Part shown: positions 2,681 to 32,779 of the stretch, piece by piece | Layout of the letters: every line of letters starts with the position of its first letter | Position numbering within the stretch: position 1 is the stretch's first letter | Origin: an uncultured Candidatus Competibacteraceae bacterium | GTDB lineage: Bacteria > Pseudomonadota > Gammaproteobacteria > Competibacterales > Competibacteraceae | Assembly: GCA_937960715.1 (NCBI GenBank) | Contig: CALGOO010000171.1 | Span: forward strand, 1 to 60,117 | Length of the DNA stretch: 60,117 nucleotides | Direction of reading: 5' to 3' | The notes under the pieces: model-generated | What the model was told of the DNA's origin: nothing | Databases searched by the model: none | Seen by the model: only the letters and a program-made list of their open reading frames with translations | Made by a program: the position numbers and the translations under genes

Positions 2681-3413
2681 GGCGGCGTCCCCCCTTGCTT
2701 TCCGCCAGCGTCGCCACATCGCCGACCACGCTGATCGGCTTGCGGTCGTAAAGCCGCTGGCCGATGGGAATCTCATAGCCGCGGTGCTTGGTCAAAATCG
2801 CTCCGGTCGGACAGACTTGCGCCGCTTTGTCGGTGACGCTGAAATCGGTCGCGCCGAGCTTGCCGGATGGGGTATTGACCACCAGATGAGCCTGGATACC
2901 TCGTCCCTGCACCGCGAAGATATTCTTGCCGTCCACGTCGCGACTGGCGCGCACGCACAGCTCGCACAGAATGCAGCGGTTGAAATCGATCACCGCCTCG
3001 GGATGGGAGGCGTCTACCGGCCGGCGCGGATAGAAGTGGGTGTAGTGCGGCGCCAGCATCCCGACGTAATAGGCCACCGCCTGTAATTGACACGCCCCGC
3101 TCTTCTCGCAGGCCGGACAGACGTGGTTGCCTTCCACGAACAGCATTTGCAGGATGCCACGCCGAATCTCGCGCAGTTCCCCGGTTTCGTTCTGCACCGC
3201 CTGGCCCACCGCCGCTGGGGTGGTGCAAGCCGCCTGCACCCGACCGTTGACCTTGACCAGGCAGACCCGGCAACTGCCGTGCGGGGCGAATTCCGGGTTG
3301 AAGCACAGATGCGGGATATAGACTCCAGCGGCCAGCGCGGCGGCCATGATGGTCTGGCCGTCCTGGAACGGCACCCGCCGCCCGTCCAGCGTGAAACTCC
3401 GGTCCGCGCTCAT
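2673..3413 (-). CDS. hoxU: Diaphorase Fe-S subunit (NuoG N-terminal-like)
   Basis: IPHLC...GSCRVC...AC 2Fe-2S motif, HVCPACEKSGACQLQ, RCILCELCVRA; ATG at 3413 overlaps the hoxF stop. Confidence 0.93.
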   Translation of the reverse strand: MSADRSFTLDGRRVPFQDGQTIMAAALAAGVYIPHLCFNPEFAPHGSCRVCLVKVNGRVQAACTTPAAVGQAVQNETGELREIRRGILQMLFVEGNHVCPACEKSGACQLQAVAYYVGMLAPHYTHFYPRRPVDASHPEAVIDFNRCILCELCVRASRDVDGKNIFAVQGRGIQAHLVVNTPSGKLGATDFSVTDKAAQVCPTGAILTKHRGYEIPIGQRLYDRKPISVVGDVATLAESKGGRRHE

Positions 3414-14014: not shown

Positions 14015-14189
14015 CCAACATCCTCCAGGATTCTTATGGGTTAGATTGTAAACGAAGCGTGGAGGAACCGCATGGCCCACGGCCGGACCGGAAGTCGTGG
14101 CGACGGTCCCGGCGCGATCCGCTATATCGCGCCCGAACTTTCTGATAGGGTTATCAAAAATCAGCCCTTCCGATGGAGCTTTCCGATCC

Positions 14190-15314: not shown

Positions 15315-15315
15315 C

Positions 15316-16194
15316 ATGACCGCGACGCAACCCCTGATCCGTCGTCTGTGCGTCATCGGCGTCGGCCTGATCGGCGGCTCGTTGGCCCGCGCCCTGCGCG
15401 AGCAGGGCGAAGTCGCCGAAGTGGTCGGCTCCGGCCGCAACGAGGACAACCTGCGCGCGGCGATTCGCCTGGGCGTGGTGGACCGTTACGACACCGATCC
15501 CGCCCGCGCGGTCGTCGACGCCGACGTGGTGGTGGTAGCCGTACCGCTGGGCGCCATCGAATCCGTGTTGCGCGCCATCGTCCCGCGCCTGGCGACCGAC
15601 GCGGTGGTCACCGACGTGGGCAGCGCCAAGGGCAGCGTGGTGGCCGACGTGGAGCGGGTTTACGGTCACATCCCCCCCCACTTCGTGCCCGGCCATCCCA
15701 TCGCCGGCACTGAGAAGAGCGGGGTCGAAGCCTCGTTCGCGACTCTGTTCCAGCGCCGGCGAGTGATCCTGACGCCGCTGGCGGAAACCGCCGCCGCCGC
15801 CCATCGCCTGATCAAACGGATGTGGGAATTGACCGGGGCCGAGGTGGTGGACATGGGCGTGCGCCATCACGACGCGGTGCTGGCGGCGACCAGCCATCTG
15901 CCGCACATGCTGGCCTACACCCTGGTCGATACCCTGGCTCGCCTGGACGACCGGGCTGAAATCTTCCGTTACGCCGCCGGCGGTTTTCGGGATTTCACCC
16001 GCATCGCCTCCAGCGACCCGACGATGTGGGGTGACATCTGCGCCGCCAACCGCGAGCAATTGCTGGAAATGATCGCGTTGTTCAGCGCCGATCTGGCGCG
16101 GCTGGCCGAAGCGATCCGCGCCGACGACCGCGCCGCGATTCTCGCCGTCTTCCAGCGGGCCAAGCGCGCCCGCGACAACCTCTATCTGGATTGA
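15316..16194 (+). CDS. tyrA: Prephenate/cyclohexadienyl dehydrogenase
   Basis: GVGLIGGS Rossmann motif, DVGSAK, HPIAGTE, SHLPH, GGFRDFTRIA. Confidence 0.93.
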   Translation: MTATQPLIRRLCVIGVGLIGGSLARALREQGEVAEVVGSGRNEDNLRAAIRLGVVDRYDTDPARAVVDADVVVVAVPLGAIESVLRAIVPRLATDAVVTDVGSAKGSVVADVERVYGHIPPHFVPGHPIAGTEKSGVEASFATLFQRRRVILTPLAETAAAAHRLIKRMWELTGAEVVDMGVRHHDAVLAATSHLPHMLAYTLVDTLARLDDRAEIFRYAAGGFRDFTRIASSDPTMWGDICAANREQLLEMIALFSADLARLAEAIRADDRAAILAVFQRAKRARDNLYLD

Positions 16195-16235
16195 TGGAGA
16201 GCGTGGCATCACCGACCCGAAGGGGAGAGTGGGTA

Positions 16236-18452
16236 TCATCCGTACATGGCCTGAACGGCGCGGTGATTCGGGCGCACCGGTGTGGGCGTCTCGTCGCCGC
16301 GTTCCTTGATCGCCACCTCGGCGGTCAGGCACCGATAGAACTCGCGGGCGCTGGGAGTTTCATCCCATAGCTCGTACTGGCGGACCACGGCGGCCACGTC
16401 GCCCGGCGCGAGGCGGTCGAGCCGCAGCACGGCCTCCTTGCAAACCGCCACCTCGGCCAAATCGCCGCCCAGCCGGGCGAACTCCTGCGCGAACAGCCCC
16501 CAGCGCTGGCCGGGCTTGAGCCAGTCGAAGCGGATCTTCCACGGGAAGCGGCGCAGGCTGGCGGCGTCCAGGCTCTCCATCAAGTTGGTGGTAGCGATGA
16601 AGATTCCGTCGAACGCCTCCATCTGGGTCAGCAGTTCGTTGACCTGGGTCACTTCCCAGGAGCGATGCGCGCCGCGTCGGTCGCGCAGGAAGGAATCGGC
16701 CTCGTCCAGCACCAGCACCGCATCGCGCTGGCGGGCGTCGTCGAACATCGCGGCGATGCTTTTTTCCGTCTGGCCGACATACATGTCCAGCAGGTCGGAG
16801 GCGCGCTTGACCAGCAACGGCTTCTCCAGCGTGTCGGCGATATGGCGGGCCAGTTCCGATTTGCCGGTGCCGGCGGGGCCGTGGAAGCAGAAGGTGCCGT
16901 GCGGGCGGCGCTGCAACGCTGCAATCAGCCTGGGAATATCCTGATCGACGTTGAGGAAACGCAGGTCGTAGCCGGTCGGGACGTGGTTGCGCGCCGGCGC
17001 CCGCTTCTGCCGGAGCAGGGTCGCCGAGCGGTCGAGCGCCTGCCGCACCAGCGACCGATTCGCTTCCAGATCGCCGTTGCCGGCGTGGCGGGCCAGCTTG
17101 GCGGCCCGCTCCAGTTGCGCCGGGGTCAGATGTTCGTGGGCGGCGATCCGCGCCAGCCAGTCGTCCTCCCCGGCCCAGTCGCCCAGATGGTGGCGGGCGA
17201 TCTCGATCCGCACCGCCTGCGGCGGCACGGTGAAGCGAATGGCGTAGTCGAACCGGCGCAGATAGGCCCGGTTCATCGAATCGGCGTCGTTGGTCAGCCA
17301 CAGCGCCGGCACCGGGTTGTTTTCCAGGGTGCGGTTGATCCACGCCTTGCCGGCGGTGGCGTTGTCGCCCTCCCCGCCGAACAGCCGGGCGAAGGGATTG
17401 CGCTCGAACACGTCCTCGACCTCGTCGAACAGCAGCAGGGCGTTGTCGCGCCGGGCCAGCAGACGCTGGCCCAGATTGAAGGCGCGCAACCGCCGCTCGC
17501 CCCGGATCGGATCGCCGTCCTCGTTGGCGTAATCCACCTCGTACAGGTCCGCGCCCACCGCCGCGGCCAGCACGGCGGCGAATTCGGTCTTGCCCACGCC
17601 CGGCGGGCCGTACAGCAGCAGGTTGGTGCCGGGAATCCGGCGGTCGAGCGCCGCCCGCAACAGCCCGACCGCCGCCGCCGTGTCCTGGCTCAGATGGGGA
17701 AAATGGGCCAGGGTCAGGGTGCGCCGGGGCGAGCGCTTGAGGAAGCGGGCCATCAGCGTCTCGGCGTCGGCGTGCGGCGTGAACAGGATGTTCGGCAAAT
17801 CTTTCCACACGTCGAGCTTGTCCTCCAGATCGACGCTGTGCGCGGCGATTTCGACCAGCCCCGTGGTGATGAGCGTGCTGGTGGGACTCAGGGCCGCGCG
17901 GATGTCGTCCTGGGGGAGGCCGGTCAACCGCGCCAACAGCTTGTGCAGAAACGGCGTGCTCGTGCTCTGTGATTGTTGGGCGATGGCATTCTGGAAGGTG
18001 CGATCCCCTCGCAGAAACACAGCGAAACAGAGCACGGCCAGTTCGACTTCGCTCAGCCCGAGCAGCCCGGCGAGCAGATTCATGTTACGCACCAGCGGCA
18101 AATCCGGGTTCAGGGTGATTTGCGCCAGTTCCGCGCGCCGCTGCCGGAGCCGCTGGAGCAAGCGCTCCGCTGACTGAGATCGCCCGCGCGGGTCCTCGTC
18201 CTCTTCTTCTCTCTCGTCCGGCTCGGCGTCATCGCCTTCGGCCAGGCCGGTCAGGGCCATGAATTCGTCGTTGTCCCAGCAGCGATGGTGATGAAAGGGG
18301 TGGCGGCGGCGTCCGGTGCGCACCCAGCCCAGCAACAGGGCCAGATCAATCAGCCAGCGGCCCAGCACGGCGCGATAGGCGACGGTGTCGTCGTCGTCCA
18401 GCGTGGTGAGGGTGGCGACGGGGTTGGCGTGCAAAAAACGGGGTAGAGTCAT
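16236..18452 (-). CDS. Double-module AAA+ ATPase (CDC48/SpoVK-like) with uncharacterised N-terminal domain
   Basis: Walker A/B pairs GPPGVGKT / LLFDEVE and GPAGTGKS / LVLDEAD; pore loop MYVG; second regions of homology AYLRRF and ASLRRF. Confidence 0.9.
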   Translation of the reverse strand: MTLPRFLHANPVATLTTLDDDDTVAYRAVLGRWLIDLALLLGWVRTGRRRHPFHHHRCWDNDEFMALTGLAEGDDAEPDEREEEDEDPRGRSQSAERLLQRLRQRRAELAQITLNPDLPLVRNMNLLAGLLGLSEVELAVLCFAVFLRGDRTFQNAIAQQSQSTSTPFLHKLLARLTGLPQDDIRAALSPTSTLITTGLVEIAAHSVDLEDKLDVWKDLPNILFTPHADAETLMARFLKRSPRRTLTLAHFPHLSQDTAAAVGLLRAALDRRIPGTNLLLYGPPGVGKTEFAAVLAAAVGADLYEVDYANEDGDPIRGERRLRAFNLGQRLLARRDNALLLFDEVEDVFERNPFARLFGGEGDNATAGKAWINRTLENNPVPALWLTNDADSMNRAYLRRFDYAIRFTVPPQAVRIEIARHHLGDWAGEDDWLARIAAHEHLTPAQLERAAKLARHAGNGDLEANRSLVRQALDRSATLLRQKRAPARNHVPTGYDLRFLNVDQDIPRLIAALQRRPHGTFCFHGPAGTGKSELARHIADTLEKPLLVKRASDLLDMYVGQTEKSIAAMFDDARQRDAVLVLDEADSFLRDRRGAHRSWEVTQVNELLTQMEAFDGIFIATTNLMESLDAASLRRFPWKIRFDWLKPGQRWGLFAQEFARLGGDLAEVAVCKEAVLRLDRLAPGDVAAVVRQYELWDETPSAREFYRCLTAEVAIKERGDETPTPVRPNHRAVQAMYG

Positions 18453-19285: not shown

Positions 19286-19492
19286 CTTTCGGTTCGTAGC
19301 TGTCCTGCGGCACGGCGCGGCGCCCGTCGAACCTTATATTCATCACTGCAGCGCAACCTGCCGCAGCAACCGCTTGCTTAGTGTGGATTTTCCTGTGATA
19401 GGGACCTGATGAGTCAATAGGCGCCACACAAAACCGCATGAAACACAATCAGGATGCGTCGGCTGAGTTCCGGGGACACACGCGACGATGGT

Positions 19493-19527
19493 ATCCGACG
19501 CAACTGGTCGCAAAGCCAGCGTATTCT
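19493..19527 (+). promoter_or_regulatory. Putative WYL-dependent promoter/operator of the hypothetical + WYL operon
   Basis: ATCCGAC-GCAACTG-GTCGC-AAAGCCAGCG-TATTCT; same architecture and N10 spacing as the site at 18486-18520. Confidence 0.7.
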
Positions 19528-19594
19528 TGTATCCGATAGCGGGCGACCGCCAAACACCGCCCGCGCCCAACTTCCCCACCCGAAGGACATCGCC

Positions 19595-20011
19595 ATGCCC
19601 CGTAAATCGACGCTGGACCCCCAAGTCAAGGCCCTGCTGGACAACCTCAATCTCGACGACGGCGGCGAGGAACTGCTCGCCGAACCCACCGAGGATACCA
19701 CTCAGCACCTGCACACCCTGTACGAACGCCTGACCAATGGTCGGGAGCGGACATTGCGCCCCGGGCAGATGGTCACATGGAAGCCGGGACTGAAGAATCG
19801 TCGCTTCCCAGCGTATGGTCAGCCGGCCATTGTGGTCGAACGGCTCACGATTCCGATTCTTGATCACGAAGCTGAGGCCGGGTCTCCGTATTATCGCGAG
19901 CCACTGGATGTGCTGTTGGGCATCTTGCGCCGGGACGGTGATTTTCTCGTCTACCATTTTGACAGTCGCCGCTTCCAACCGTACCAGGCAGACGAAACCG
20001 GAAGTCGTTAG
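19595..20011 (+). CDS. Hypothetical protein (138 aa), possibly SH3-like barrel
   Basis: AAGGA Shine-Dalgarno, ATG at 19595; LRPGQMVTWKPGLKN...DSRRFQPY; lies between the promoter and the WYL gene. Confidence 0.75.
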   Translation: MPRKSTLDPQVKALLDNLNLDDGGEELLAEPTEDTTQHLHTLYERLTNGRERTLRPGQMVTWKPGLKNRRFPAYGQPAIVVERLTIPILDHEAEAGSPYYREPLDVLLGILRRDGDFLVYHFDSRRFQPYQADETGSR

Positions 20012-20080
20012 CGGTCGTTGTCAGCGCCCGGACGTTCGGCGCAAACGCCCGCTCTCCCCCGCCCCATCAGGGAACCGCTG

Positions 20081-21181
20081 ATGAAAGAAGACGCCATCAC
20101 CACGTTCAACCGCCGCCTGCGCATTCTGGCGATGTTCAAGGGCAGCGAGCCGCTCACGACGCAAATGATTTTCAAACGGTTGCAGGGGACCGCCGAGGAA
20201 ATGGACGAGCGCTCGGTGCAACGGGTCCTGGCGCTGCTGGGCGAGGCCGGTTTTCTGGAAACGGTCAATCTCGATGCCAAGCCGTTGCAGTGGCGTTGGC
20301 CCAAGGGGCGAAAGTTCATGGCTCTGCCCCGGCTGTCGGATCAGGAGGTGCTGGCGTTTCGGCTGCTGGAGCTGTTTCTGAAACCGCTGTTACCCCGCGA
20401 GTCCTACCGGGCGCTACGGCCCTACTTCGAGACCGCTCGCGGTGAACTCAACGACATGCCGTTCTGGGCGCCGGTCAAGAACTGGGAGGCGAAGGTGCGA
20501 GTGGTGCCGCCGGCGCAACCGCTGTTGCCGCCGGAGCCGCCGCCCGGACTGACTGGGGAGACCGCCCGCCAGGACTGGGAACGCCAGCAGGAACAGACGC
20601 GAGCGGCGCTCCTGGAAGCCCTGTTCGAGAACCGGCAGTGCGCGGTCGAGTACCAGCAGCTCTGGCGGGACGAACCGGCGCGCTGGACGCTGCATCCTCT
20701 CGCGTACCTGCAACGCGGACCGGCGTTCTATCTGCTCTGCACCATCGCCGAGTACGCCGACGTGCGGCAACTGGCCGTGCACCGGATGCTGTCGGCCATG
20801 GTGCTGGACCGGAAAGCGAGCAAACCGGCGGGCTTCGACGTGGATCGGGAAGTGGAGCGCAGTCAAGGCATGGGCGGTAGCGGCGAACCGCTGCGACTGG
20901 TGGCCCGGTTCTGGAAACGCGCCGGACTACATTTGCTGGAAACCCGCCTGGCCACCGATCAGGTGGCGGAGGACGAGGGCGACGACCATTTCCGGCTCAC
21001 CGCCACCGTCAACGACACCGCGCAACTGCGCTGGTGGCTATTGTCGTTCGGCTCCAAGGTGGAGGTGCTGGAACCCACTGAGCTGCGGGAGGAAATGGCG
21101 ACTCAGGCGTATTGGATGAATCGGATGTATGCGAGGTCGAGTTCGCCACCAGAGAGCGCAATCATTATGGAGCGGTCATGA
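20081..21181 (+). CDS. WYL-domain transcriptional regulator (wHTH-WYL-WCX)
   Basis: HTH ERSVQRVLALL; WYL core LHPLAYLQRGPAFYLLC...RQLAVHRM; WCX LRWWLLSFGSKVEVLEPTELRE. Confidence 0.92.
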   Translation: MKEDAITTFNRRLRILAMFKGSEPLTTQMIFKRLQGTAEEMDERSVQRVLALLGEAGFLETVNLDAKPLQWRWPKGRKFMALPRLSDQEVLAFRLLELFLKPLLPRESYRALRPYFETARGELNDMPFWAPVKNWEAKVRVVPPAQPLLPPEPPPGLTGETARQDWERQQEQTRAALLEALFENRQCAVEYQQLWRDEPARWTLHPLAYLQRGPAFYLLCTIAEYADVRQLAVHRMLSAMVLDRKASKPAGFDVDREVERSQGMGGSGEPLRLVARFWKRAGLHLLETRLATDQVAEDEGDDHFRLTATVNDTAQLRWWLLSFGSKVEVLEPTELREEMATQAYWMNRMYARSSSPPESAIIMERS

Positions 21182-21804: not shown

Positions 21805-22035
21805 GGATGGAGTTTCCTAAACGGGCCAGGGAACGGGAATCGCACCGCGCCAGTGTACCGCCATCCAACCGGGGTGAAAACCGCCCCGCTCACCGCCCAT
21901 CCGTTTGAGCTAACGCCGCGCGGGGGTGTGGGGGGGCGGGCAAGAACAGGGGTACTCAAAATCCCGCTCAAGGAAAGCCATGCGCGATTGTGGAATATTC
22001 TGTAGTAAGGGCATCGGGTTATCCGGGGTGGCGTT

Positions 22036-22044
22036 TGCTAGAAT
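22036..22044 (+). promoter_or_regulatory. Extended -10 promoter
   Basis: TG-C-TAGAAT ending 7 nt before the ATG at 22051. Confidence 0.4.
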
Positions 22045-22050
22045 CCCTTC

Positions 22051-23007
22051 ATGGCCACCGGGCCGGAGAACGCCGCCGCCATGAAGACCGACAAGCAGAT
22101 TCACGCCCTGCTGGCGTCCAGCCCGGAGGCATTCCGCTTCCTGACCGACGGGATCGAGTTGAACGGTCCCTATCAAGGCCGCTCGGTGGTCTTCAAGGAC
22201 CTGGAACGGCGGGCCGACCACGTGTTCGAAGCCGATGACGGCAAGGGACCCACCTACCTCATCGAGGTCCAGGCCCAGCACACCGGCGATGTCTACGACC
22301 GGCTGGTGCTGGAACTCCTGCTGTACCGCCGCGCCCACCCGGAACGCACCGTCCAAGGTCAGGTCATTTTCCTCACTGCGAGCTGCGACGAACCGGACTG
22401 GCCATGGGCCGAATGGGTCGGGCGAGGGCCGCTGCGCAAGCCGGTCTATCTGGACCAGGTGCTGGAAAAGGCCCGGCAACACCACCCCGATCACCCCCTG
22501 CTGGCGGTCTTTTTACCGTGGTTCGCCCGCGATGCGGAACTGGCGCAACAGGCCCCGCTGGCTTGGCGACGGCTGGAAGCGCTCACCGAACCCGGCGCCG
22601 CGGTCCTGCTCGACGTGTTCATGTCCTGGATGATGGAGCGATTTAAAGGTCAAACCTACGAGGAGGTTCTCCGCATGTTACAAGTACTCACTCCCCTGGA
22701 AGAAACCCGCGCTTATAAGGAACTGGTCGCTATCGGTATCGAGAAGGGTAAAAAGGAAGGCCGCGAGGAAGGTAAAAAGGAAGGTAAAAAGGAAGGTAAA
22801 AAGGAAGGTCAGGCTGAAGGTGAAAAATGGGGTCGCCAGAAAGAAGCGCGGGCGCTGCTGACCAAGCAACTTCGCCGGCGGTTTGGCCAGTTACCCCGCT
22901 GGGCCAGCGCCCGTCTGCGCCAGGCAGACACACAGCAACTGGAAACCTGGGCCGAGAACATCTTCGATGCCAAGGAGTTGACGGATTTGCTCGGCCCAAA
23001 GCCTTGA
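22051..23007 (+). CDS. Rpn-family PD-(D/E)XK nuclease (DUF2887-like) with C-terminal DUF4351-like domain
   Basis: MKTDK...FKDLERRADHVF...IEVQ; GxxE repeats; QLRRRFG...LETWAENIFDAKEL. Start is 22051 or 22081. Confidence 0.85.
   Translation: MATGPENAAAMKTDKQIHALLASSPEAFRFLTDGIELNGPYQGRSVVFKDLERRADHVFEADDGKGPTYLIEVQAQHTGDVYDRLVLELLLYRRAHPERTVQGQVIFLTASCDEPDWPWAEWVGRGPLRKPVYLDQVLEKARQHHPDHPLLAVFLPWFARDAELAQQAPLAWRRLEALTEPGAAVLLDVFMSWMMERFKGQTYEEVLRMLQVLTPLEETRAYKELVAIGIEKGKKEGREEGKKEGKKEGKKEGQAEGEKWGRQKEARALLTKQLRRRFGQLPRWASARLRQADTQQLETWAENIFDAKELTDLLGPKP
22675..23007 (+). CDS. Putative internally translated Rpn small antitoxin (110 aa, in frame)
   Basis: AGGAGG at 22661-22666, 8-nt spacer, in-frame ATG at 22675. 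Confidence 0.6.
   Translation: MLQVLTPLEETRAYKELVAIGIEKGKKEGREEGKKEGKKEGKKEGQAEGEKWGRQKEARALLTKQLRRRFGQLPRWASARLRQADTQQLETWAENIFDAKELTDLLGPKP
22747..22830 (+). repeat. 12-bp tandem repeats encoding GKKE/GxxE
   Basis: GGTAAAAAGGAA occurs four times plus degenerate copies. Confidence 0.9.
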
Positions 23008-25265
23008 TCGCCCCGACCAAGGAAACCGATGCCCGCATCCTGATCGACGATCAGTTGCGCGCGGCGGGCTGGAATCCGGCCGACAAGTCGCAGGTGTTGA
23101 CCGAGGTCAAGACCTCGGGCTGCTGGCATGGCGTGGCCGAACCGGAATCGCAAAGTACCGTTCTCTCGACTCAAGACGGCGACGCCATTCCCACCGGACG
23201 GGCCGATTACGTCCTGCTGGATTCGCGCGGCAGGCCGCTGGCCGTCATCGAATCCAAGCGGCAGGCCATCCAGCCGTATGTGGCAAAACAGCAGGCGCTG
23301 CCTTACGCCAAACAGATCGGCGCCCCCTTCATCTTCTTGACCAACGGCGAACTGATCTACTTCTGGGATTATCGGAACGACGACGCACGCATCGTCCAGT
23401 CGTTTTTCTCGCGCCGGGACTTGGAACGCCTGGTCCACATGCGCGGCACCCGCCAGCCGCTGGCCACGGTCCCCATCCCGGACACCTATTTCCGCCAGGG
23501 CGAAACCCGATGGCTGCGCCCCTATCAAACCGAGGCCATGCAGGCCCTCGACCGCACGGTGGAACTCGGCAAGCGCCGCTTCCTCATCGAATTGCCCACC
23601 GGCTGCGGCAAAACCGATTTGATCGCGCTTTACCTCAAGCGCCTGATCGAAGCCGGCCACGCCGAACGGGTTTTGTTTCTGGTCGACCGCGATCAACTGG
23701 CCAAGCAGGCCATCGAAGCCATTCAGGACCTGTTGCCGGGACATTCGAGCTATTGGCTCAAGTCCGGCATGGTTCGCCAGGAACAACAAATCACTGTGTG
23801 CCTGCTGCAAACCATGATCGGCCGCTACCCCGAGTTCACCAGCGGCTACTTCGACGTGGTGGTCGCCGACGAATGTCACCGCTCGATTTACGGCGCCTGG
23901 CAGACGGCGCTCATCTACTTCGATGCCCTGCACATCGGCCTCACCGCGACACCGGCCCTGTATATCGAGCGCAATACGTTCCAGTTCTACCACTGCAAGG
24001 ACGATACGCCCGACTACTCGTACTCTATCCAGCAGGCGTTCCAGGACAGGTTTCTCGCGCCCTACCGTTTCGCCACCGGCATCACCACGCTGGTGTCCGA
24101 GGGGGCCGACGTGGACGAAGAACATTACGACCCTGCCGAGTTCGAGCGCCAATGGACCAACGAGGCGAGCAATCGGCTGATGATGGCGGAGTTCGACCGC
24201 CTCGCCTGGGAAAATTACCGGGAACTGGCTCCCGGCCAGAAAATCGGCCCCGGCAAGGCGGTGATCTTCGCCATCACCAAACATCACGCCGCCCGATTAA
24301 CCCAGTATTTGAACGAACTGCACCCCGAATATCAGGGGCGCTACGCCGAGGTCATCACTTCGGATGTCGCCAACCCCGACGACCTGATCCGCTGTTTCAA
24401 GCGGGAAGAGTTGCCGATGATCGCGGTCAGCGTCGGGATGCTCGACACCGGTTTCGATTGCCGGGAAATCCTGCATCTGGTGATGTGTCGCCGTGTGCGC
24501 AGCCCGATTCTCTACCAGCAAATGCGGGGTCGCGGCACCCGCCCGGCGCCGCACATCGATAAACGGAAGTTCGTCATTTACGATTTCTTCCGCAATCATG
24601 AGTATTTCAACGACTCGGACACCGACATCTTCTCTGGCGGCGACAGCGGCCACGCACGCAAACCTCAGCCCGTCAAGGCCAAGACCGCCCGCGAGTTGAT
24701 CGAACTGGGGTTGGAAGACGAATGGCTCGATGCCGTTCATTACATCGAAATCGGCCCCGACGGCGAGCGGGTGGACAAGCGTGATTACGTCACCGACTGG
24801 GAGCGGGCCATCCGCCAGCAGGCCGACCGCGATCCGATTCTCGCCAAGGTCAAGGCCGGCGAGGCGCTCACCGACGCGGAAGAAACCGAACTGGCGCGGC
24901 GCTTGAACCAGCCCGAATGTTATTTCAACGAAGACAACCTGCGCCGCGCCTATCGCAATCCGGGCGGCAATCTGGTGGACTTCATCCGCGCCGCCCTGGG
25001 AATGCTGAAACTCAAGAGCCGCGAAGAGCGCGTCGAGGACAATTTCCGCGCCTGGCTGGTGGCCAAGAATCTCGCCCCGGCGCAGGCACAGTATTTGGCG
25101 CTGCTCAAGAATCGGGGCCTGGTCAAGGGTCGGGTCTCGCTGGACGATCTTTTTAACCCGCCGCTCTCCATCCTGAACGCGGCCAACATCGGCATCGAAC
25201 TGTTTGGCGAGGAGGGTCTCAAGGCCGTGATGGATGAAATCAACCAGGCCGTGCTGGTGGCGTGA
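23004..25265 (+). CDS. hsdR: Type I restriction endonuclease subunit R (short, EcoAI/EcoEI-like)
   Basis: GRADYVL...IESK nuclease motif; PTGCGKT, DECH, GLTATP, MLDTGFD, QMRGRGTR; probable TTG start overlapping the rpn stop. Confidence 0.92.
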   Translation: MIAPTKETDARILIDDQLRAAGWNPADKSQVLTEVKTSGCWHGVAEPESQSTVLSTQDGDAIPTGRADYVLLDSRGRPLAVIESKRQAIQPYVAKQQALPYAKQIGAPFIFLTNGELIYFWDYRNDDARIVQSFFSRRDLERLVHMRGTRQPLATVPIPDTYFRQGETRWLRPYQTEAMQALDRTVELGKRRFLIELPTGCGKTDLIALYLKRLIEAGHAERVLFLVDRDQLAKQAIEAIQDLLPGHSSYWLKSGMVRQEQQITVCLLQTMIGRYPEFTSGYFDVVVADECHRSIYGAWQTALIYFDALHIGLTATPALYIERNTFQFYHCKDDTPDYSYSIQQAFQDRFLAPYRFATGITTLVSEGADVDEEHYDPAEFERQWTNEASNRLMMAEFDRLAWENYRELAPGQKIGPGKAVIFAITKHHAARLTQYLNELHPEYQGRYAEVITSDVANPDDLIRCFKREELPMIAVSVGMLDTGFDCREILHLVMCRRVRSPILYQQMRGRGTRPAPHIDKRKFVIYDFFRNHEYFNDSDTDIFSGGDSGHARKPQPVKAKTARELIELGLEDEWLDAVHYIEIGPDGERVDKRDYVTDWERAIRQQADRDPILAKVKAGEALTDAEETELARRLNQPECYFNEDNLRRAYRNPGGNLVDFIRAALGMLKLKSREERVEDNFRAWLVAKNLAPAQAQYLALLKNRGLVKGRVSLDDLFNPPLSILNAANIGIELFGEEGLKAVMDEINQAVLVA

Positions 25266-25270
25266 ATAGA

Positions 25271-25420
25271 CCCCCCACCCCAACCCTCCCCCACAAGGGG
25301 GGAGGGAGTCTTATTGGCTCCCCCTCCATCAAGGCCACGATCAACGAGGCCGCGCGAGGTGGCGGGAAGGAGTCTTGTTGGCTCTCCCTCCCCTCCGTGG
25401 GAGGGAGTTGGAGGGAGGGG
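25271..25420. repeat. REP-like C-rich/G-rich palindromic element
   Basis: Hairpin CCCTCCCCC-ACAAG-GGGGGAGGG, an inverted degenerate copy at 25384-25420, and internal direct repeat GGAGTCTTRTTGGCTC. Confidence 0.65.
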
Positions 25421-25446
25421 CGAACGATGACAACCAAGGCAACAAC

Positions 25447-27090
25447 GTGAATCCACAACTGCGCCGCAAGCTCGATCACATCACCGACACCCTCTGGGCC
25501 GGTGGCGTGACCAATCCGGTGACTTATATCGAGCAGATTTCCTACCTCATCTTCCTGAAACTGCTGGACGAGGAGGAATCCGACCGCGAGCTGCGCATCC
25601 GCCTGGGCGCGACGGGCGGCAACGCCAAACTGCTGTTCCCGGCGCAGGCCGAGCGTTATCGCTGGAACAAATGGCGCTTCAAGAGCGGCAACGCGCTGCG
25701 CGATTTCATCCGCGATGAGGTATTTCCCTACATGGCCTCGCTCGCCAGGGACGAGCCGGAAGTGGCGGAATATTTCCGCGATGCGGTGCTGGAGATCGTC
25801 GATCCCAACGTGCTCAAGCAGGTCATCGACGAACTCGACGGTTTTGAATTCCGCAAGCTCGGGCCGGACGTGAAGGGCGACATCTTTGAATACCTGCTGG
25901 TGCATCTCGGTTCCAGCGCGCTCAACGGCCAGTTTCGCACCCCGCGCCAGATTCGCGCCTTTATGGTCGAGATGGTCGATCCCGACCTCGGCGATGCCCT
26001 TTTTGATCCTGCCTGCGGCACGGCGGGTTTCCTGATCGATGCGGTGGATTTCCTGCTCGCCAAGTATTCCGATCACATCAGCGAATACCCGATTTACGGC
26101 GAGGACTGGCTGGACAAGAAGGGCAAGACGGTCGCCGAACTCAAGGCCGAGAACCCGCGCTTGCAGACTTATCGCAAGGGCGCGGGGGAAAAGATTCCGG
26201 AGTGGGCGTTGCTGGAAAGCGCGATTTACGGGACCGATGTGTCGCGCCAGATGGTGCGGATCAGCATGATGAATCTGGTGCTGCACGGTATCCGTCACGC
26301 ACGGCTCAAGCGCGCCAATTCGCTATCCGACATGGGCGGACTATCCGAGGACGATCTGCGCCGCCGCTACCAGGTGATCCTGGCTAATCCGCCGTTTGCC
26401 GGTCAGTTGCCCAAGGATTCGATCCGCGCCGACCTGCCCACCCACAGCAAGAAAAGCGAGTTGCTGTTTTTGTCGCTGATGATGCTGCACCTCGCTCCCG
26501 GCGGGCGCTGCGCGGTGGTCGTGCCCGAAGGGCTGCTGTTCGGCTCCACCGGCGCGCACGTCGATCTGCGCAAGAAGCTGATCAACGACTTTGATCTGCT
26601 GGCGGTGGTGAGCCTGCCGGCGGGTGTGTTCAAGCCTTACGCGGGCGTCAAAACCGCCGTACTGGTGTTTCGCCGGCCTGCTTCCACGAGCGCCGCCCGG
26701 CTGGATAAAGTCTGGTTCTACGAGGTGCGGAACGACGGTTACGACCCGGACAAGGTCGCGGGCGGCGGTCGCGTGGAAACGCCGGACAAGAGCGACATTC
26801 CCGACCTGCTCGCCCAGTGGAAAACCTACAAGGCCGGCGGCTTCAAAACCCCGCCGGGACTGGAAGCGAACAGCTTGTTACCGCACGGCAGCGCAGAACC
26901 GAGTTGCTGGTGGACCACGAAGGAGAAGCTCATTGAGGCGGATTACAACCTCGGCGCCGGGCAGTGGAAGCCGCGCGTGGCGGAGAAAGTCAGCGATGAA
27001 GACCCGTGTGAGTTGGTGAAGGAAGTTCTCGCCGATTACCGGCATGTGGTGGCGGGACTGGAAAAGCTGTTGGCGGAGTTAGAGGAATGA
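25447..27090 (+). CDS. hsdM: Type I R-M N6-adenine methyltransferase subunit M
   Basis: WAGGVTNP...IEQISYLIF, GQFRTPR, DPACGTAGFL, NPPF; GTG start at 25447. Confidence 0.95.
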   Translation: MNPQLRRKLDHITDTLWAGGVTNPVTYIEQISYLIFLKLLDEEESDRELRIRLGATGGNAKLLFPAQAERYRWNKWRFKSGNALRDFIRDEVFPYMASLARDEPEVAEYFRDAVLEIVDPNVLKQVIDELDGFEFRKLGPDVKGDIFEYLLVHLGSSALNGQFRTPRQIRAFMVEMVDPDLGDALFDPACGTAGFLIDAVDFLLAKYSDHISEYPIYGEDWLDKKGKTVAELKAENPRLQTYRKGAGEKIPEWALLESAIYGTDVSRQMVRISMMNLVLHGIRHARLKRANSLSDMGGLSEDDLRRRYQVILANPPFAGQLPKDSIRADLPTHSKKSELLFLSLMMLHLAPGGRCAVVVPEGLLFGSTGAHVDLRKKLINDFDLLAVVSLPAGVFKPYAGVKTAVLVFRRPASTSAARLDKVWFYEVRNDGYDPDKVAGGGRVETPDKSDIPDLLAQWKTYKAGGFKTPPGLEANSLLPHGSAEPSCWWTTKEKLIEADYNLGAGQWKPRVAEKVSDEDPCELVKEVLADYRHVVAGLEKLLAELEE

Positions 27091-28379
27091 GGTGGTTGCA
27101 GACAACTATAGGTGAAATCTGCTTGCCAACCGTGCAAATAGATCCCACTCGAAAGGGCACAGAAAGCTTTCGCTATATAGACATCGCAGGTATTGATCGA
27201 GAGCAAAAAACTATTTTCCGTGCTGATCCTAGCCCATGCGAGTCTGCACCCAGTCGTGCCCGAAAGCTTGTCCAAGCTGGAGATGTCTTGGTCTCTACTG
27301 TTCGCCCTAATCTAAATGCGGTTGCACTCGTACCTGAAGAGCTTGATGGTGAAATCGCCTCAACTGGCTTTTCCGTGCTTCGTGCAAATCAAAAACTCGT
27401 TAATCCTCACTATTTGTTTTATCGGGTACAGCACCAAGAGTTTGTTGCCTGCCTAGTGGCAAACGCTACGGGCGCAAGTTATCCCGCCGTAACGGATGGT
27501 GTAGTTCGACGTGTTTTCTTACCCTTGCCGTCCCTGAAGGAGCAAGCCCGCATCGTCGAAATTCTCGACGAAGCCGACCGGTTGCGCCGACTGCGCCGTG
27601 TGGCCGACTCCAAAGCCACCCGCATTCTACCTGCGCTGTTTCTCAAGATGTTTGGCGATCCTGAAACTAATTTGAAAAACTTTCCGGTTGTAAAATTGGG
27701 AACCATGATTGAGGATGGTCCACAAAATGGACTCTATAAACCGAGTTCAGCCTATGGTAAAGGCGTCCGAATCCTGAGAATAGATGGTTTTTATTCCGGT
27801 CAAATAACCGATATTTCGGTCTTAAAACGCTTGGAAATTCGCCCTAATGAAATCGCAAAATATGGCCTCCATGAAAATGATATCGTCATAAATCGTGTGA
27901 ATAGTGAAGAATATCTAGGAAAATCGGCAATCATTCCTAAACTCGATGAATCAGTTGTCTTTGAATCGAATATGATGCGGCTTTCAGTCGATTTGACACA
28001 AATAGATCCACTCTTCTTGATCGCACATCTCCAGACGCCATTCACGAAAAAAGAAATTCTCCAAAAAGCAAAAAGAGCCATTAACCAAGCAAGTATCAAT
28101 CAGCAGGACATTCGAGCATTATCTATTCTCAAACCTCCGATAGAATTGCAAATTCGTTTTGCCTCAATTGTCCAAGGAGCCAACGCAACGCTTTCAGTAA
28201 TGGCAGCTACCATAGGTAAACTGGATCATCTTTTCGATCTTCTTCTACATCAAGCCTTCTCCGGCCAACTCACCGCCAAGTGGCGCGAAGCGCACAGCAA
28301 AGAACTGCTGGCCGAAATGGAGCAGCAGGCCCGGCTGCTGAACCTGCCGCTTCCGAAAGAATTGGAACTTGCCCCATGA
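27087..28379 (+). CDS. hsdS: Type I R-M specificity subunit S
   Basis: Two TRDs with conserved PLPSLKEQARI and PPIELQIRF segments and central MFGDP; ATGA overlap with hsdM. Confidence 0.93.
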   Translation: MRWLQTTIGEICLPTVQIDPTRKGTESFRYIDIAGIDREQKTIFRADPSPCESAPSRARKLVQAGDVLVSTVRPNLNAVALVPEELDGEIASTGFSVLRANQKLVNPHYLFYRVQHQEFVACLVANATGASYPAVTDGVVRRVFLPLPSLKEQARIVEILDEADRLRRLRRVADSKATRILPALFLKMFGDPETNLKNFPVVKLGTMIEDGPQNGLYKPSSAYGKGVRILRIDGFYSGQITDISVLKRLEIRPNEIAKYGLHENDIVINRVNSEEYLGKSAIIPKLDESVVFESNMMRLSVDLTQIDPLFLIAHLQTPFTKKEILQKAKRAINQASINQQDIRALSILKPPIELQIRFASIVQGANATLSVMAATIGKLDHLFDLLLHQAFSGQLTAKWREAHSKELLAEMEQQARLLNLPLPKELELAP

Positions 28380-29470
28380 GCGCAAAGGTACCGGCGCACT
28401 ACACCGCCTTGCTGAGCGACATCAAGCAGCGCATCCGCCATGCCCAGACGCGGGCGGTGCTGGCGGTCAACGCCGAACTGATCCGCCTCTACTGGGAGAT
28501 CGGCGCTCTGATCGACGCCCGACAGAAACAGGAAGGCTGGGGCGCGGCGGTGATTCCCCGCCTGGCGGCCGATCTGCACAACGATCTGCCGGAAGAGAAG
28601 GGCTTTTCCGAGCGCAACATCAAACGCATGTTGGCGTTTTACCGCGAATATCCGGCGCTTGAATTAGCGCCACCGGCGGTGGCATTCCCACAGGCCAGCG
28701 CAGAAGTGCCACAGCCTGTGGCACTTTTTACGCCGGAGATGGTGCTGGCACTGCCCTGGGGGCACCACGCAGTGCTGATGGAAAAGATCAAGGATGCCGC
28801 CACCCGCCAGTGGTACATGCGCGCCTCGGTCGAAAACGGCTGGAGCCGCAATATCCTGCTGATGCAAATTGAATCGGCGGCACACACGCGGCAAGGCGCG
28901 GCCGCCAGCAATTTTGCGCTGCGCCTGCCGGCGCCCGATTCCGACCTGGTGCAGCAAACCCTGAAGGACCCATATCTGTTCGATTTTCTGACACTGCAAG
29001 AGCCTTTCCACGAACGGGAATTGGAAACCGGCCTCATCGCCCATCTGGAAAAATTTCTGCTCGAACTCGGTCGGGGTTTTGCTTTCGTGGGACGGCAATA
29101 CCACTTGGACATTGGCGAGCAGGATTTCTACATCGACCTGCTGTTCTATCACCTCAAGCTGCGCCGCTACGTGGTGATCGAACTCAAGCGCGGCGCTTTC
29201 AAACCGGAATACGCCGGCAAGATAAACTTCTATTGCAACGTAGTAGACGACCATCTGCGCCACGGCGATGACAAGCCGACCATCGGCCTGATTCTATGCC
29301 AGCAACCCAACCGCGTGTTGGCCGAGTATGCGCTGCGCGGCATGGATAAACCCATCGGCGTATCGAGTTTCGAGCTGACCCGCGCCCTGCCCGAAACTTT
29401 ACAATCCAGCCTGCCCAGTATCGAGGACATCGAGCGCGAGTTGGGCGATGTCAACGGAGATACCTCGTGA
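28376..29470 (+). CDS. YhcG/DUF1016-family PD-(D/E)XK nuclease
   Basis: AVNAELIRLYWEIG, GFSERN, KDPYLFDFL, LLELGRGFAFVGRQ, IDLLFYH, VIELK. Confidence 0.93.
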   Translation: MSAKVPAHYTALLSDIKQRIRHAQTRAVLAVNAELIRLYWEIGALIDARQKQEGWGAAVIPRLAADLHNDLPEEKGFSERNIKRMLAFYREYPALELAPPAVAFPQASAEVPQPVALFTPEMVLALPWGHHAVLMEKIKDAATRQWYMRASVENGWSRNILLMQIESAAHTRQGAAASNFALRLPAPDSDLVQQTLKDPYLFDFLTLQEPFHERELETGLIAHLEKFLLELGRGFAFVGRQYHLDIGEQDFYIDLLFYHLKLRRYVVIELKRGAFKPEYAGKINFYCNVVDDHLRHGDDKPTIGLILCQQPNRVLAEYALRGMDKPIGVSSFELTRALPETLQSSLPSIEDIERELGDVNGDTS

Positions 29471-31161
29471 GCCGCCGCCTCACCGCCCTGCGCGTCGGCA
29501 ACTTCAAGGCGTTTGCCAATACCCAGCGCATCCCGCTCAAGCCCATCACCCTGATCTTCGGCCCCAACAGCGCCGGCAAATCCAGCTTCATTCACAGCCT
29601 GGCGCTGGCCCACGAAGCGCAATTTGGCCGCGACAAGCGCAGCCTCGCCCGCCTCGATGTCCATCACACCGATATCGGGGGCAGCAGCATCGATCTCGGC
29701 GGTTTTCGCCAATATATCCATCGTGGCCAAGCCAACCGCCGGGTCGAATGGGGCGCGGAATTGGCGGTCGCCAGCTTCGGCGGACGTCTCGCACAACTGC
29801 TCGCACCGGTGAACACGATTACGGTGACGCTCTGCCTGGGCATTGAACTAGACGATCAGGACCGCCCCAAACCGGGCGCCGCGCCGAAGGTGGAAGCCAT
29901 CGAGATCAGCGCCGACAGCGCCGAACTGCTGCGCATGAGCCGCCGACGTTCCGACGCTCACGGCAGCCTCCTGCGCCTGGACCGTCTGGATGCCGCTCAT
30001 CCCGTTTTCCGGCAGGTGCTCAAGGCCATCGTCGAATCCGCCACCACCTCCGAAGAGATGCGCCCGGAAGACTTCGAGGGCGCCAACACGGCCATCGCCG
30101 ACCTGCTGCCCGAGTTGCAAGTCCGCGTCGAACAGTTTTTCCCGACCGCCGTGGAACTGCCCAAGGCTGAAGGCGCGGAACTCTCGCCCGTCAGCCTGCT
30201 GTTCCCGATCAGCAAGGGCAATCGGCGCGAAGACATCGCCCAAGCCGTGCGTTTCTATCTGCCCCGCACGATCAACGACCTCGTCAAGGGACTTTCCGAC
30301 GTGCTGGCCGATGAACTCAAACACCTTCAGTATCTCGGCCCCCTGCGCTCCTTCCCGCCCCGCCACCTCGCCTTTGCCGAGCACGAAGACGCCAACTGGT
30401 ACGCCGGGGGCGGCTATGCGTGGGACGTGGTGCGGCGCGATGACCAAGTGCGCGAAGTGGTGAACGGCTGGTTGGGTTCCGACAAACTGAAGACGCCCTA
30501 CAAGCTCGTCGTGCGTTCGCTTTTCGGTATGGATACCATCGAAGAGGTTATTGAGTCTCGATTGGAAGAGATCGAAAAAAGTGAACTTGACTTCATGCCT
30601 GGTGATTTTCAGGAAAATCCTGCTGCTTACCCTCAAATTGGTCTTCCGTATCTCAGGGATCATCAAAAATCTCTTGAGAAAACGATTGCGGCTTTTCAAG
30701 AAGAACCGGGCAGATTGCTGAGTGAGCTAGTCCTGATTGATAAGCGTATTAACACGGTCGTCACTCACCGAGACGTGGGTATTGGCATCTCTCAAGTTCT
30801 TCCCGTTCTGGTCATGGCCTACGGTTCACAGGGTAAGCTGATCGCCATGGAACAACCGGAAATCCACCTCCATCCGGCATTGCAAGCGGAATTGGGCGAT
30901 GTCTTTATCGAAGCCGCACTCGGCGAGCGCCAAAACACTTTCATTCTGGAAACCCACAGCGAGCATTTGATTTTGCGATTAATGCGCAGAATCCGTGAGG
31001 GAAAGATCCATCCGGACGATGTCGGGGTGGTATTCGTCGAACCGTCGAGTCATGGGAGCCGATTGATCGAATTGCGCCTGGATGAAGAGGGTGATTTCAT
31101 CGACGAGTGGCCTGGAGGCTTTTTCGAGGAGTCCTTCCACGAGAAATTCGCGGGGCGCTGA
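29467..31161 (+). CDS. ABC-type ATPase (AAA_15/AAA_21) with C-terminal DUF3696
   Basis: NFKAF, GPNSAGKSS, DVGIGISQVLP, EQPEIHLHP, ETHSEH, DEWPGGFF. Confidence 0.9.
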   Translation: MSRRLTALRVGNFKAFANTQRIPLKPITLIFGPNSAGKSSFIHSLALAHEAQFGRDKRSLARLDVHHTDIGGSSIDLGGFRQYIHRGQANRRVEWGAELAVASFGGRLAQLLAPVNTITVTLCLGIELDDQDRPKPGAAPKVEAIEISADSAELLRMSRRRSDAHGSLLRLDRLDAAHPVFRQVLKAIVESATTSEEMRPEDFEGANTAIADLLPELQVRVEQFFPTAVELPKAEGAELSPVSLLFPISKGNRREDIAQAVRFYLPRTINDLVKGLSDVLADELKHLQYLGPLRSFPPRHLAFAEHEDANWYAGGGYAWDVVRRDDQVREVVNGWLGSDKLKTPYKLVVRSLFGMDTIEEVIESRLEEIEKSELDFMPGDFQENPAAYPQIGLPYLRDHQKSLEKTIAAFQEEPGRLLSELVLIDKRINTVVTHRDVGIGISQVLPVLVMAYGSQGKLIAMEQPEIHLHPALQAELGDVFIEAALGERQNTFILETHSEHLILRLMRRIREGKIHPDDVGVVFVEPSSHGSRLIELRLDEEGDFIDEWPGGFFEESFHEKFAGR

Positions 31162-31163
31162 AG

Positions 31164-32177
31164 ATGCTTGTTCCATTTGTCATTGATGTTGACAGCCTTG
31201 CTCCTGATCCCGGATGGACGCCGGCGCAGCTTCAGACCTGCCATCAGTCCCTACTCGATGTTTGGCAACGCATTGGAATTCTCAAGCACGATACTGATCG
31301 CTTTGAAACTTCGCGCCTTCAACAGGCCGTCCAGCAGTTGCCCCAAAAGATTCGGCCGCAATGGCTCGCCATGCTTCAGCGTAATCTTCTGCTGGCTTGC
31401 GGTAATGGTTGGGACGGAAATGTCACCCCAAACAGTATCAACCAACTCGATGGTATTGCGCAGGTCGCTTTGGTCGATGACACACGCGCCGAAGTGGATT
31501 TTGGACTCTCCGAAGAGGTGTTGTCTTCCCCAGCCCAAGGCATCCCGAATGTGGAGGTTTGCAGAATCCTGGCGGCAGCGCACGCAAAGACTTTCCGGGA
31601 TGCGCTCGCCAGATCGACCGCCCACATCGAACCGAAAGAAACATTCAGGGATATTTGGACGCAACGTTTCAAATCGCTGGCTTGCGCGCCCATCAAGCGC
31701 GTTGTCATCGTCGATCGGTTCGTGATCGGACAACTATTCAATCCGCCGCACCAGCAGCTTTCTGGATTGGACCGCTTTTTGAGGCTGTTGGACGCGGACG
31801 CCAGTGGGCCTCGGCATGTCACTCTTTACTCTTCATGGGCAGATCTTCCGAGAGCAACCGGGATAGCTGAAATAGAAGCCGAAATTAACCTGGCGATGAA
31901 CCGGTTGCAGCACAGAAATATCAAGCAATTGAAAGTAGTGATGCTCCCAAACGCGATCTTTGGCGATGTCGCCCATGACCGCTTTATCCGATTCGAAAGG
32001 GTGGTCTGGGATATCGGATTGGGGTTGAAAGTCTTCGAAGGAGCCTTTGCAGCCGAACGGTCTTCGGCTACGTTCAAGGCAGAGAAAGTTGCAGTGGATA
32101 GTTACAAAAAGGTAGAAGCGGAACTTGCGCGACATCCGCAAGCAAAATCTTGGGTTCTCCCATCCCCACTGGGCTAA
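31164..32177 (+). CDS. Hypothetical protein with C-terminal PLD-like (MIT_C-type) motif
   Basis: ATG 2 nt after the ATPase stop; VVIVDRF and HDRFIRF...IGLGLKVF. Confidence 0.65.
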   Translation: MLVPFVIDVDSLAPDPGWTPAQLQTCHQSLLDVWQRIGILKHDTDRFETSRLQQAVQQLPQKIRPQWLAMLQRNLLLACGNGWDGNVTPNSINQLDGIAQVALVDDTRAEVDFGLSEEVLSSPAQGIPNVEVCRILAAAHAKTFRDALARSTAHIEPKETFRDIWTQRFKSLACAPIKRVVIVDRFVIGQLFNPPHQQLSGLDRFLRLLDADASGPRHVTLYSSWADLPRATGIAEIEAEINLAMNRLQHRNIKQLKVVMLPNAIFGDVAHDRFIRFERVVWDIGLGLKVFEGAFAAERSSATFKAEKVAVDSYKKVEAELARHPQAKSWVLPSPLG

Positions 32178-32184
32178 CATCGAC

Positions 32185-32250
32185 CTGCGCTAAGCCGACG
32201 CCGAGCGACTGGAACCCTGGGCGAAAACCATCCTCGACGCAAAGAGTTGA
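32185..32250 (+). pseudogene. Degenerate remnant of an rpn/DUF4351 3' end
   Basis: Translates LR*ADAERLEPWAKTILDAKS* versus Rpn LRQADTQQLETWAENIFDAKEL (22915-22980). Confidence 0.72.
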
Positions 32251-32394
32251 TCAACTCGCCCGGATCAAGGCCGAACTGATTCAGCGATTTTCGCCCCTAT
32301 TGCAACAGATTTGCCAGCAGATAGATCATGTGCTTTATGTCCTTATACCATTTCCTGTTAGGTTTTGTTTTTTCAGGGGTCAAAAACTGTTCCA

Positions 32395-32469
32395 TTCGTC
32401 ATACCCGCGAAAGCGGGTATCCAGTGGTTCGGTGGCTGACTGGATTCCCGCCTTCGCGGGAATGACGAA
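32395..32469. repeat. REP doublet (REPIN-like; GTCATTCCCGCG...GCGGGAATCC class)
   Basis: TTCGTCATACCCGCGAAAGCGGGTATCCAGT-spacer-ACTGGATTCCCGCCTTCGCGGGAATGACGAA inverted pair. Confidence 0.8.
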
Positions 32470-32779
32470 AATCTATTCAGAATTAGTATTACGTCGTCAT
32501 GATGAAGAGACAGAACGGCCTCCTCGACATCTGGTGAAGGACAGCTATCAGGCGCATGGGGAGCGATTGGCCGGTGCATCGAGTCACCCCCGCTCACAAT
32601 AATCATGGGAACCGACAGGTGGCGAGACCGCTCCCAGGGCAATCGCCCCATGTGTTTTTATCAATATTTATCAAATATTTGAAAAATACAGGCAGGGTGC
32701 GTTGACAAATCAATATTCAGTTAAACCAATTTCTTACACTGACACAGCCCGATTGCCCTGGGACCGCCCCGGCGGGCGC

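Follow-up and report, generated by a model that had tools for sequence, protein, structure and literature searches.

A putative two-gene relative of the Menshen and HEC-03 defence systems in an uncultured Candidatus Competibacteraceae bacterium

The Menshen defence system described by Li et al. 2025 (PMC12065111) combines NsnA, NsnB and NsnC. NsnB is an ATP-binding cassette (ABC) ATPase with a DUF3696 domain, a Q-to-R and an SGG-to-GxG exchange, and EN in its Walker B motif; NsnC comprises an inactive PIN domain (inPIN; reference match at Z 5.8) and one of 15 effectors. One of these effectors, PB-PLD1, is MIT_C-like, carrying an HDR motif and, after beta-2, an acidic residue; in the AlphaFold3 prediction the PIN-like domain lies between two DUF3696 tails, with no contact to NsnA (PMC12065111). 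HEC-03 is, according to the available part of its preprint (10.1101/2024.01.29.577857), a pair of an ATPase and a PIN protein that defends, requires both genes, is toxic on induction and occurs embedded in other defence loci. Here we describe a pair of adjacent genes for an ABC ATPase and a putative effector on contig CALGOO010000171.1 of an uncultured Candidatus Competibacteraceae bacterium (GCA_937960715.1), analysed at its full length of 60,117 nucleotides (hereafter the window).

The pair is likely a two-gene variant of the known Menshen/HEC-03 defence family and not a new kind of system. Judged from their sequences, the ATPase and the effector resemble the last two Menshen parts, i.e. NsnB and an NsnC of the inPIN plus PB-PLD1 type, without NsnA. 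Since the survey of Li et al. started from DUF262, loci lacking NsnA lay outside it, and no printed description of an NsnA-less pair of ATPase and phospholipase D (PLD) protein was found in the literature searched, which excluded the supplements to the Menshen and HEC-03 papers and the ABC ATPase classification of Krishnan et al. 2020, where such a dyad may be listed. The original prediction had called the pair possibly undescribed; this holds for the two-gene arrangement only and not for the parts, as both match component types already described (Menshen NsnB and NsnC), and the sensor-less relative HEC-03 has already been shown to defend. We consider it probable that the ATPase and the effector form an anti-phage module that belongs to the Menshen/HEC-03 family and has no separate sensor gene; a putative nuclease of PLD fold would be held by the ATPase via its DUF3696 tail and set free on infection.

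The predicted order, an ATPase gene followed 2 nt later by a frame of 337 amino acids, is borne out by the reading frames (Table 1): the effector ATG lies two bases past the ATPase stop, and the ATPase GTG overlaps the stop of yhcG. Motif positions in the ATPase were read from an alignment of 22 cognate ATPases and comprise Walker A (GPNSAGKS), an arginine in the Q-loop (R294), the signature G438-I-G440, Walker B (IAMEQ; E462-Q463) and the H-loop (ETHSE). In Pfam the protein matched AAA_15 and AAA_21, and its assignment to DUF3696 in the original prediction is upheld by a score of 21.3 bits, below the cut-off of 22, together with scores above the cut-off in seven of the 11 cognate ATPases scanned. 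The best PADLOC matches were PDC-M55A (2e-46), HEC-03B (8e-44) and NsnB (4e-41), far ahead of AriA (7e-20), PtuA (0.04) and GajA; with R294 and the GIG and EQ positions, the NsnB match agrees with the similarity to the Menshen ATPase given in the original prediction. The PADLOC check proposed at the time thus gave named matches for the ATPase, and none that was meaningful for the effector. Rad50, GajA and OLD were among the Foldseek matches. In a tree of 24 rows, the window ATPase falls within a group of 15 (support 100/99) in which each ATPase has a PLD-type or weakly PLD-type partner, separate from the single Menshen and the three HEC-03 ATPases; one ATPase with a PLD partner (L052) lies outside this group in this tree with its one Menshen row.

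The effector alone gave no meaningful match in Pfam, NCBIfam or PADLOC. None of these libraries (PADLOC in version 2.0) contains a model for its family, and all three therefore miss the pair. Relatives number 172 at 90% and 397 at 50% clustering. The three motifs named in the original prediction were located at V180-x-I182-x-D184-x-F186, H271-D-R-F-I275 and I284-G-x-G-L-x-x-F291, and can hardly be due to chance, because they are near-invariant in an alignment of 125 homologues that reaches down to about 22% identity (D184 in 124, H271 in 116, R273 in 125 and G287 in 124). The predicted MIT_C/PLD-like fold of the C-terminal half is supported by profile, Foldseek and structure scores alike: the family profile matched the C-terminal domain of human MITD1 (4A5Z) at E 3.3e-5, 20 of the 125 members matched Pfam MIT_C at E up to 0.01, and MITD1 ranked first in Foldseek for the AlphaFold2 (AF2) model of the effector (pLDDT 92.9). 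Residues about 151-333 of this model gave Z 10.8 with SauUSI (root-mean-square deviation (rmsd) 3.4, 147 residues aligned), Z 9.9 with MITD1 (rmsd 3.1, 134 aligned) and Z 9.2 with NucT (rmsd 3.5, 146 aligned). In the ESM Atlas, 29 of 30 matches of the effector were unnamed clusters, and one carried MIT_C on 13% of its members.

A precedent for nuclease activity of such a domain is DruE of P. aeruginosa, with two MITD1-like PLD domains and the motifs D1917-R1918-Y1919 and H1999-x-R2001; according to the available part of the preprint, mutations in the PLD motifs abolished or reduced defence, and D1740A abolished degradation of single-stranded DNA (10.64898/2026.05.13.724313). DruE cleavage is also backed by the available part of a second preprint (PMC13192584). 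By eye, D184-R185-F/Y186 and H271-x-R273 of the effector family reproduce the DruE pattern. It is improbable, in our view, that the pair is a defence pair whose PLD domain serves not as a nuclease but in membrane or lipid binding, in other phosphodiester cleavage or as a scaffold, as suggested for human MITD1. Such a role would fit the degenerate HKD motif, the top match to MITD1 (called a membrane-binding PLD fold in the title of a paper), lipid PLDs that score Z about 10, level with the nucleases, and the PLD domains of E. coli DruE, which the available part of a further preprint gives as dispensable for defence (10.64898/2026.05.12.722862). Against it stand the near-invariance of D184, H271 and R273 at about 25% overall identity, the catalytic role of the same motif set in P. 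aeruginosa DruE, and the secondary structure of the AF2 model, which has no signal or membrane segment.

For the N-terminal domain (residues 1-150), a PIN-like fold is predicted from structure matches to the PIN domains of SMG5 (Z 5.7, rmsd 3.8, 99 residues aligned), RRP44 (5.1), EST1A (4.8), Utp24 (4.7) and SSO1118, with a few non-PIN folds scoring similarly. D8 and D105/D106 are partly conserved acids in this domain. Its ESM Atlas matches score below 0.9 and serve as leads only.

The loci found with the effector comprise 18 from genomes and at least 27 from metagenomes, at least four of these 45 being duplicates. Conservation of the pair, as anticipated, was observed: among the matches listed, the ATPase lies directly 5' of the effector at 38 of 45 loci, the exceptions being four loci with no upstream sequence (L036, L039, L041, L046), one with 365 bp upstream only and no ATPase match in them (L018), and two remnants (L017, L020). 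Removal of duplicates (L022, L034, L042, L043) and of loci with no readable upstream gene left 21 informative loci, which are mostly proteobacterial, not independent, and drawn from the nearer part of the effector family. NsnA (DUF262) precedes the ATPase at none of these 21, and a true NsnA as query found only itself among 56 sources. The absence of DUF262 noted in the original prediction was confirmed: the window contains no such gene, with yhcG preceding the ATPase, and no PF03235 match was found in the host genome (97.8% complete), a search in which seven of 14 controls gave a match. A distant member on an Azospirillum plasmid (E 2e-52 to the effector profile) is likewise without NsnA. Of the 38 ATPase matches on plasmids, 12 were read, comprising one complete Menshen, three HEC-03-like loci, four with PLD-type partners and four with other partners; DUF262 was found in the annotation or open reading frames (ORFs) of the complete Menshen only.

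That the pair is the leftover of a three-gene Menshen operon, with nsnA lost and the remainder inactive or decaying, appears very unlikely. Both parts do match Menshen components, four of the 125 effector homologues weakly match a PADLOC NsnC model (best 4e-5), and an allele exists in which a deletion destroys both genes; NsnA is, however, absent at all 21 informative loci, in several families, the reading frames are intact and the catalytic residues invariant, and the ATPase belongs to the 15-row group of PLD-partnered ATPases apart from the Menshen and HEC-03 rows. The allele in question is a 1,552-bp deletion (window 29722-31275) shared by L020 (652-1867), from a metagenome, and a contig of run X16, from an RNA library; it takes out most of the ATPase and the first 37 effector codons. 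A search of 400 class genomes with the PADLOC NsnC model (PDLC03880) gave no match, with its control silent as well.

The gene before the ATPase at the 21 informative loci is hsdS in ten, yhcG in three, an RtcR-type sigma-54 activator in five (with a small gene between activator and ATPase in two), an Argonaute-like gene in one, and unclassified in two. The Argonaute-like gene has no Pfam hit and was called from its position after a TIR gene, behind an hsdMS-Kiwa-TIR run. It is conceivable, yet we regard it as unlikely, that the pair is a dedicated guard of type I restriction-modification (R-M), comparable to PrrC, with the R-M enzyme or the sigma-54 activator replacing NsnA as sensor and the pair firing when restriction is inhibited. 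Fourteen of the 21 loci lie right behind hsdS or an hsdS-linked insert, and more distant PLD-type pairs follow hsdS on Methylocella and Azotobacter plasmids. The other seven, as well as L052 and L054, are without R-M genes directly upstream, so that R-M is not obligatory, and the space between hsdS and the ATPase freely takes up yhcG, Kiwa and TIR/Argonaute-like genes, more in keeping with an insertion hotspot than with a partner. At L013 (1886-6339), where Kiwa (KwaB hit), a TIR gene and the 510-aa Argonaute-like ORF stand between hsdS and the ATPase, this gap would be an insertion site for defence genes.

Further observations were made on the surroundings of the pair in relatives. The RtcR-type activator heads the operon at L003, L004, L006, L009, L014, L016, L024, L027 and L038, located before hsdR or directly before the ATPase; the window island has no such activator, and an Rpn/DUF2887 gene leads instead. 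An ORF of 169 aa takes the place of yhcG before the ATPase at L065 (minus strand, 3210-3719), L069 and L020 (207-716); it has no Pfam hit, and its SRGYYAGYH stretch is reminiscent of HEPN proteins. L009 contains a second, distant ATPase-partner pair (13674-16668) 4.7 kb 3' of the first; the partner in this second pair shows the pattern IVDRYP...HMR and is weakly matched by the effector profile.

The ATPase-effector unit is exchanged in modules. In three relatives (G461, G863 and G465) the ATPase protein is 77-83% identical to that of the window, and its DNA is 83-90% identical up to nt 30998 (codon 511), past which both the tail and the partner differ from those of the window, the partner being about 310 aa long and shorter in G465; the same switch is present in a partial copy (G408). 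BLAST gave no significant match between the partner of these three and the window effector, and the group of alternative partners matches the C-domain of the effector family in hhalign (81% probability, E 1e-5; DP...HxR pattern). The crossover coincides exactly with the start of DUF3696, the position to be expected for a tail and an effector that bind each other as a cognate pair. Homology is also broken in Insert-2 (codons 352-420) in two of the three, and two pairs of loci (L004/L021 and L033/L035) are 94-97% identical on either side of a non-homologous block in Insert-1. At third codon positions, the GC content in the window is about 0.8 before codon 360 of the ATPase, 0.3-0.65 past it and 0.47-0.68 in the effector, a profile that is consistent with a mosaic origin of the pair.

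From these exchanges a broader model may be drawn, which we put forward tentatively and with some doubt: DUF3696 ATPases might be a mix-and-match immune platform without a separate sensor, in which recombination exchanges the inserts (what is sensed) separately from the cassette of tail and effector (what is destroyed), comparable to the swapping of recognition domains in HsdS. This branch of the platform would carry a stand-alone PLD nuclease of the MITD1 type, which dimerisation gated by the ATPase would activate, and would offer the simplest model for enzymatic activity of the human MITD1 fold.

The pair forms the end of a type I R-M run (rpn-hsdR-hsdM-hsdS-yhcG-ATPase-effector), a setting not noted in the original prediction, on an island between gcvR and dapA (Table 1); yhcG is not at this position in most relatives. 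The distance between gcvR and dapA is 11,038 bp in the window and 154-181 bp in all 14 same-genus genomes (of 16 searched) that have both genes on one contig. The effector is present in one of 16 same-genus, one of 72 family and none of 400 phylum-sample genomes; the first and last of these counts indicate a patchy spread typical of defence genes. No relatives were found on viral contigs in two scans, and the window effector matched no plasmid, while distant members as queries led to one Azospirillum record. Contigs from RNA libraries (four runs, three studies) cover both genes in part, with two of them reaching across the junction, although such contigs cannot show transcription. In four RNA-library runs, a palindromic REP-like repeat 3' of the effector (window 32395-32470) is covered very deeply and with many loose ends, as a multicopy repeat would be. 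Just beyond the island (window 19454-21181), genes for a WYL-WCX regulator and a 185-aa protein of unknown function were found, which occupy the same place in G412 and G405 and not in G413.

Table 1. Coordinates of the ATPase-effector pair, its predicted domains and the surrounding island in the window
Feature	Position	Strand	Remarks
NsnB-type ABC ATPase	29467..31161	+	564 aa, GTG start, TGA stop
ATPase Insert-1, variable	about residues 86-285		
ATPase Insert-2, variable	about residues 352-420		
ATPase DUF3696 tail	residues 513-564		
Effector, partner of the ATPase	31164..32177	+	337 aa, ATG start
Effector N-domain, PIN-like fold, predicted docking domain for the DUF3696 tail	31164..31613, aa 1-150	+	structure matches, moderate support
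Effector C-domain, MITD1/MIT_C-type PLD fold (PB-PLD1-like), predicted nuclease	31614..32177, aa 151-337	+	D184-R185-F186, H271-D-R273
Island in the gcvR-dapA spacer	about 21889..32762	.	10.9 kb, 9-bp ACCGCCCCG at both junctions
Rpn/DUF2887-DUF4351 family gene, first in island	22051..23007	+	
hsdR, EcoEI-like type I restriction subunit	22827..25265	+	true start probably about 60 codons further in
hsdM	25447..27090	+	
hsdS	27087..28379	+	47% GC
yhcG/DUF1016 PD-(D/E)xK gene	28373..29470	+	PADLOC PDC-S02; optional insert between hsdS and ATPase

For the mode of action of such a module the following may be proposed. An ATPase oligomer would bind the PIN-like domain of the effector via the DUF3696 tail, as in the AlphaFold3 prediction for Menshen (PMC12065111). 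The ATPase itself would sense the trigger, most likely through the exchangeable Insert-1; with PARIS and PrrC as parallels, this trigger might be an anti-restriction or DNA-mimic protein of the phage, or DNA of abnormal structure. Single-motif PLD domains dimerise in Nuc and Zucchini, and ATP turnover would release or rearrange the effector such that one active site is built from two of its single-motif PLD domains; DruE, in the available preprint text, uses two PLD domains (10.64898/2026.05.13.724313). The activated effector would then degrade nucleic acid, most likely single-stranded DNA, and back up, by abortive defence, the type I R-M system that usually precedes the pair.

The computed basis of the anti-phage module proposed here consists of the two folds, the conserved residues of catalytic type, the gene pairing, the absence of NsnA, the mobile R-M island and the modular exchange. 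Several observations speak against it. The effector lacks the canonical HxKxxxxD motif and has H271-D-R273-F-I-R-F-E278 instead, with D in 64, G in 37 and E in 15 of the 125 homologues at position 278, and the PLD domains of E. coli DruE are, as said, dispensable. The PIN assignment is based on Z 4.5-5.7, and in hhalign the N-domain profile matched the HEC-03 PIN, VapC and true NsnC at a probability below 1%; given the strong profile and Z scores of the C-domain in comparison, we rate the predicted PLD fold as firm and the predicted PIN fold as moderate. Incongruence between ATPase and effector was not significant in an approximately unbiased tree test (p-AU 0.098), seven of the 21 loci lack R-M genes directly upstream, and the gene context was read almost only in the nearer part of the family, the distant half being represented by one locus (L052). 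There is, finally, only a slight chance that the pair is an addiction module resembling toxin-antitoxin systems, which stabilises the island or acts on plasmids and not on phage. The tight translational coupling, the mobile and patchy spread, the one deletion that removes both genes, and the toxicity of HEC-03 would agree with this; the rapid exchange of ATPase inserts better fits the sensing of changing invaders, and the tested relatives Menshen and HEC-03 are anti-phage.

If the pair defends alone, the ATPase-effector core of Menshen needs no NsnA, and the pair therefore bears on how NsnA signals, an open point in Li et al. given the AlphaFold3 prediction. The effector is a small, single-domain test case for nuclease activity of the MITD1-type PLD, on which the 2026 Druantia preprints, in their available parts, disagree. 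The natural crossovers (Insert-1, Insert-2, and tail plus effector) provide ready pairs for mapping the specificity of sensing and of the effector. The present analysis adds a map of the empty site, the joint crossover of tail and effector, the swaps in Insert-1 and DruE as a precedent.

In comparison with known systems, the pair is not a member of Menshen, as NsnA is missing, nor of HEC-03, as its partner is not a stand-alone PIN. With Menshen it shares the Q-loop arginine, the GxG signature, a non-canonical Walker B and the DUF3696 tail of the ATPase, the frequent link to type I R-M, and an effector with a predicted PIN-like N-domain and a C-domain that is MIT_C-like and includes both the HDR motif and the acidic residue after beta-2, the likeness to PB-PLD1 being judged from the description in the paper. 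It differs from Menshen in lacking NsnA (DUF262; ParB-DUF262 plus ParBDB), in Walker B (EQ in the window, EN in Menshen), in the size of the ATPase (564 aa with big variable inserts, compared with about 345-376 aa for NsnB) and in an effector that matches no PADLOC NsnC model. As far as the available preprint text describes it, HEC-03 likewise has two genes only, the same type of ATPase (E 8e-44) and no sensor gene, but its partner is a single VapC-like PIN of about 160-177 aa, whereas the window partner of 337 aa is predicted to be PIN-like plus PLD; true HEC-03 partners (L056, L058) match the HEC-03 PIN model at 2e-24 and the window effector does not.

HEC-03-like ATPase-PIN pairs were observed at L056, L057, L058 and L073. 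An RNA ligase family gene follows such a pair in the annotation of three plasmids, with a similar-looking ORF in one family genome, and this third gene suggests a toxin-and-repair arrangement. In PADLOC the PIN is HEC-03A and the ATPase HEC-03B (PDLC04147/PDLC04148), the reverse of the available preprint text.

PDC-M55, a PADLOC candidate compared by PADLOC models only, gave the best ATPase match (E 2e-46), and its partner models matched none of the 125 effector homologues at E 0.1. In PARIS, Septu and PrrC, as far as the available sources describe them, a nuclease is likewise under the control of an ABC ATPase, in many cases to back up R-M. Their effectors are of the TOPRIM, HNH or HEPN type (HEPN in PrrC), and the ATPase matches are far weaker, as given above for AriA and PtuA. 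DruE of Druantia and the HKD/HRD variants of BrxL (PMC12839542), in the parts of these sources that are available, have in common with the pair an MITD1-like PLD domain with DRY and HxR motifs in an anti-phage protein; their PLD domains are fused to a helicase or an AAA+ ATPase, whereas the predicted PLD domain of the window is a single one, in a separate protein beside an ABC ATPase.

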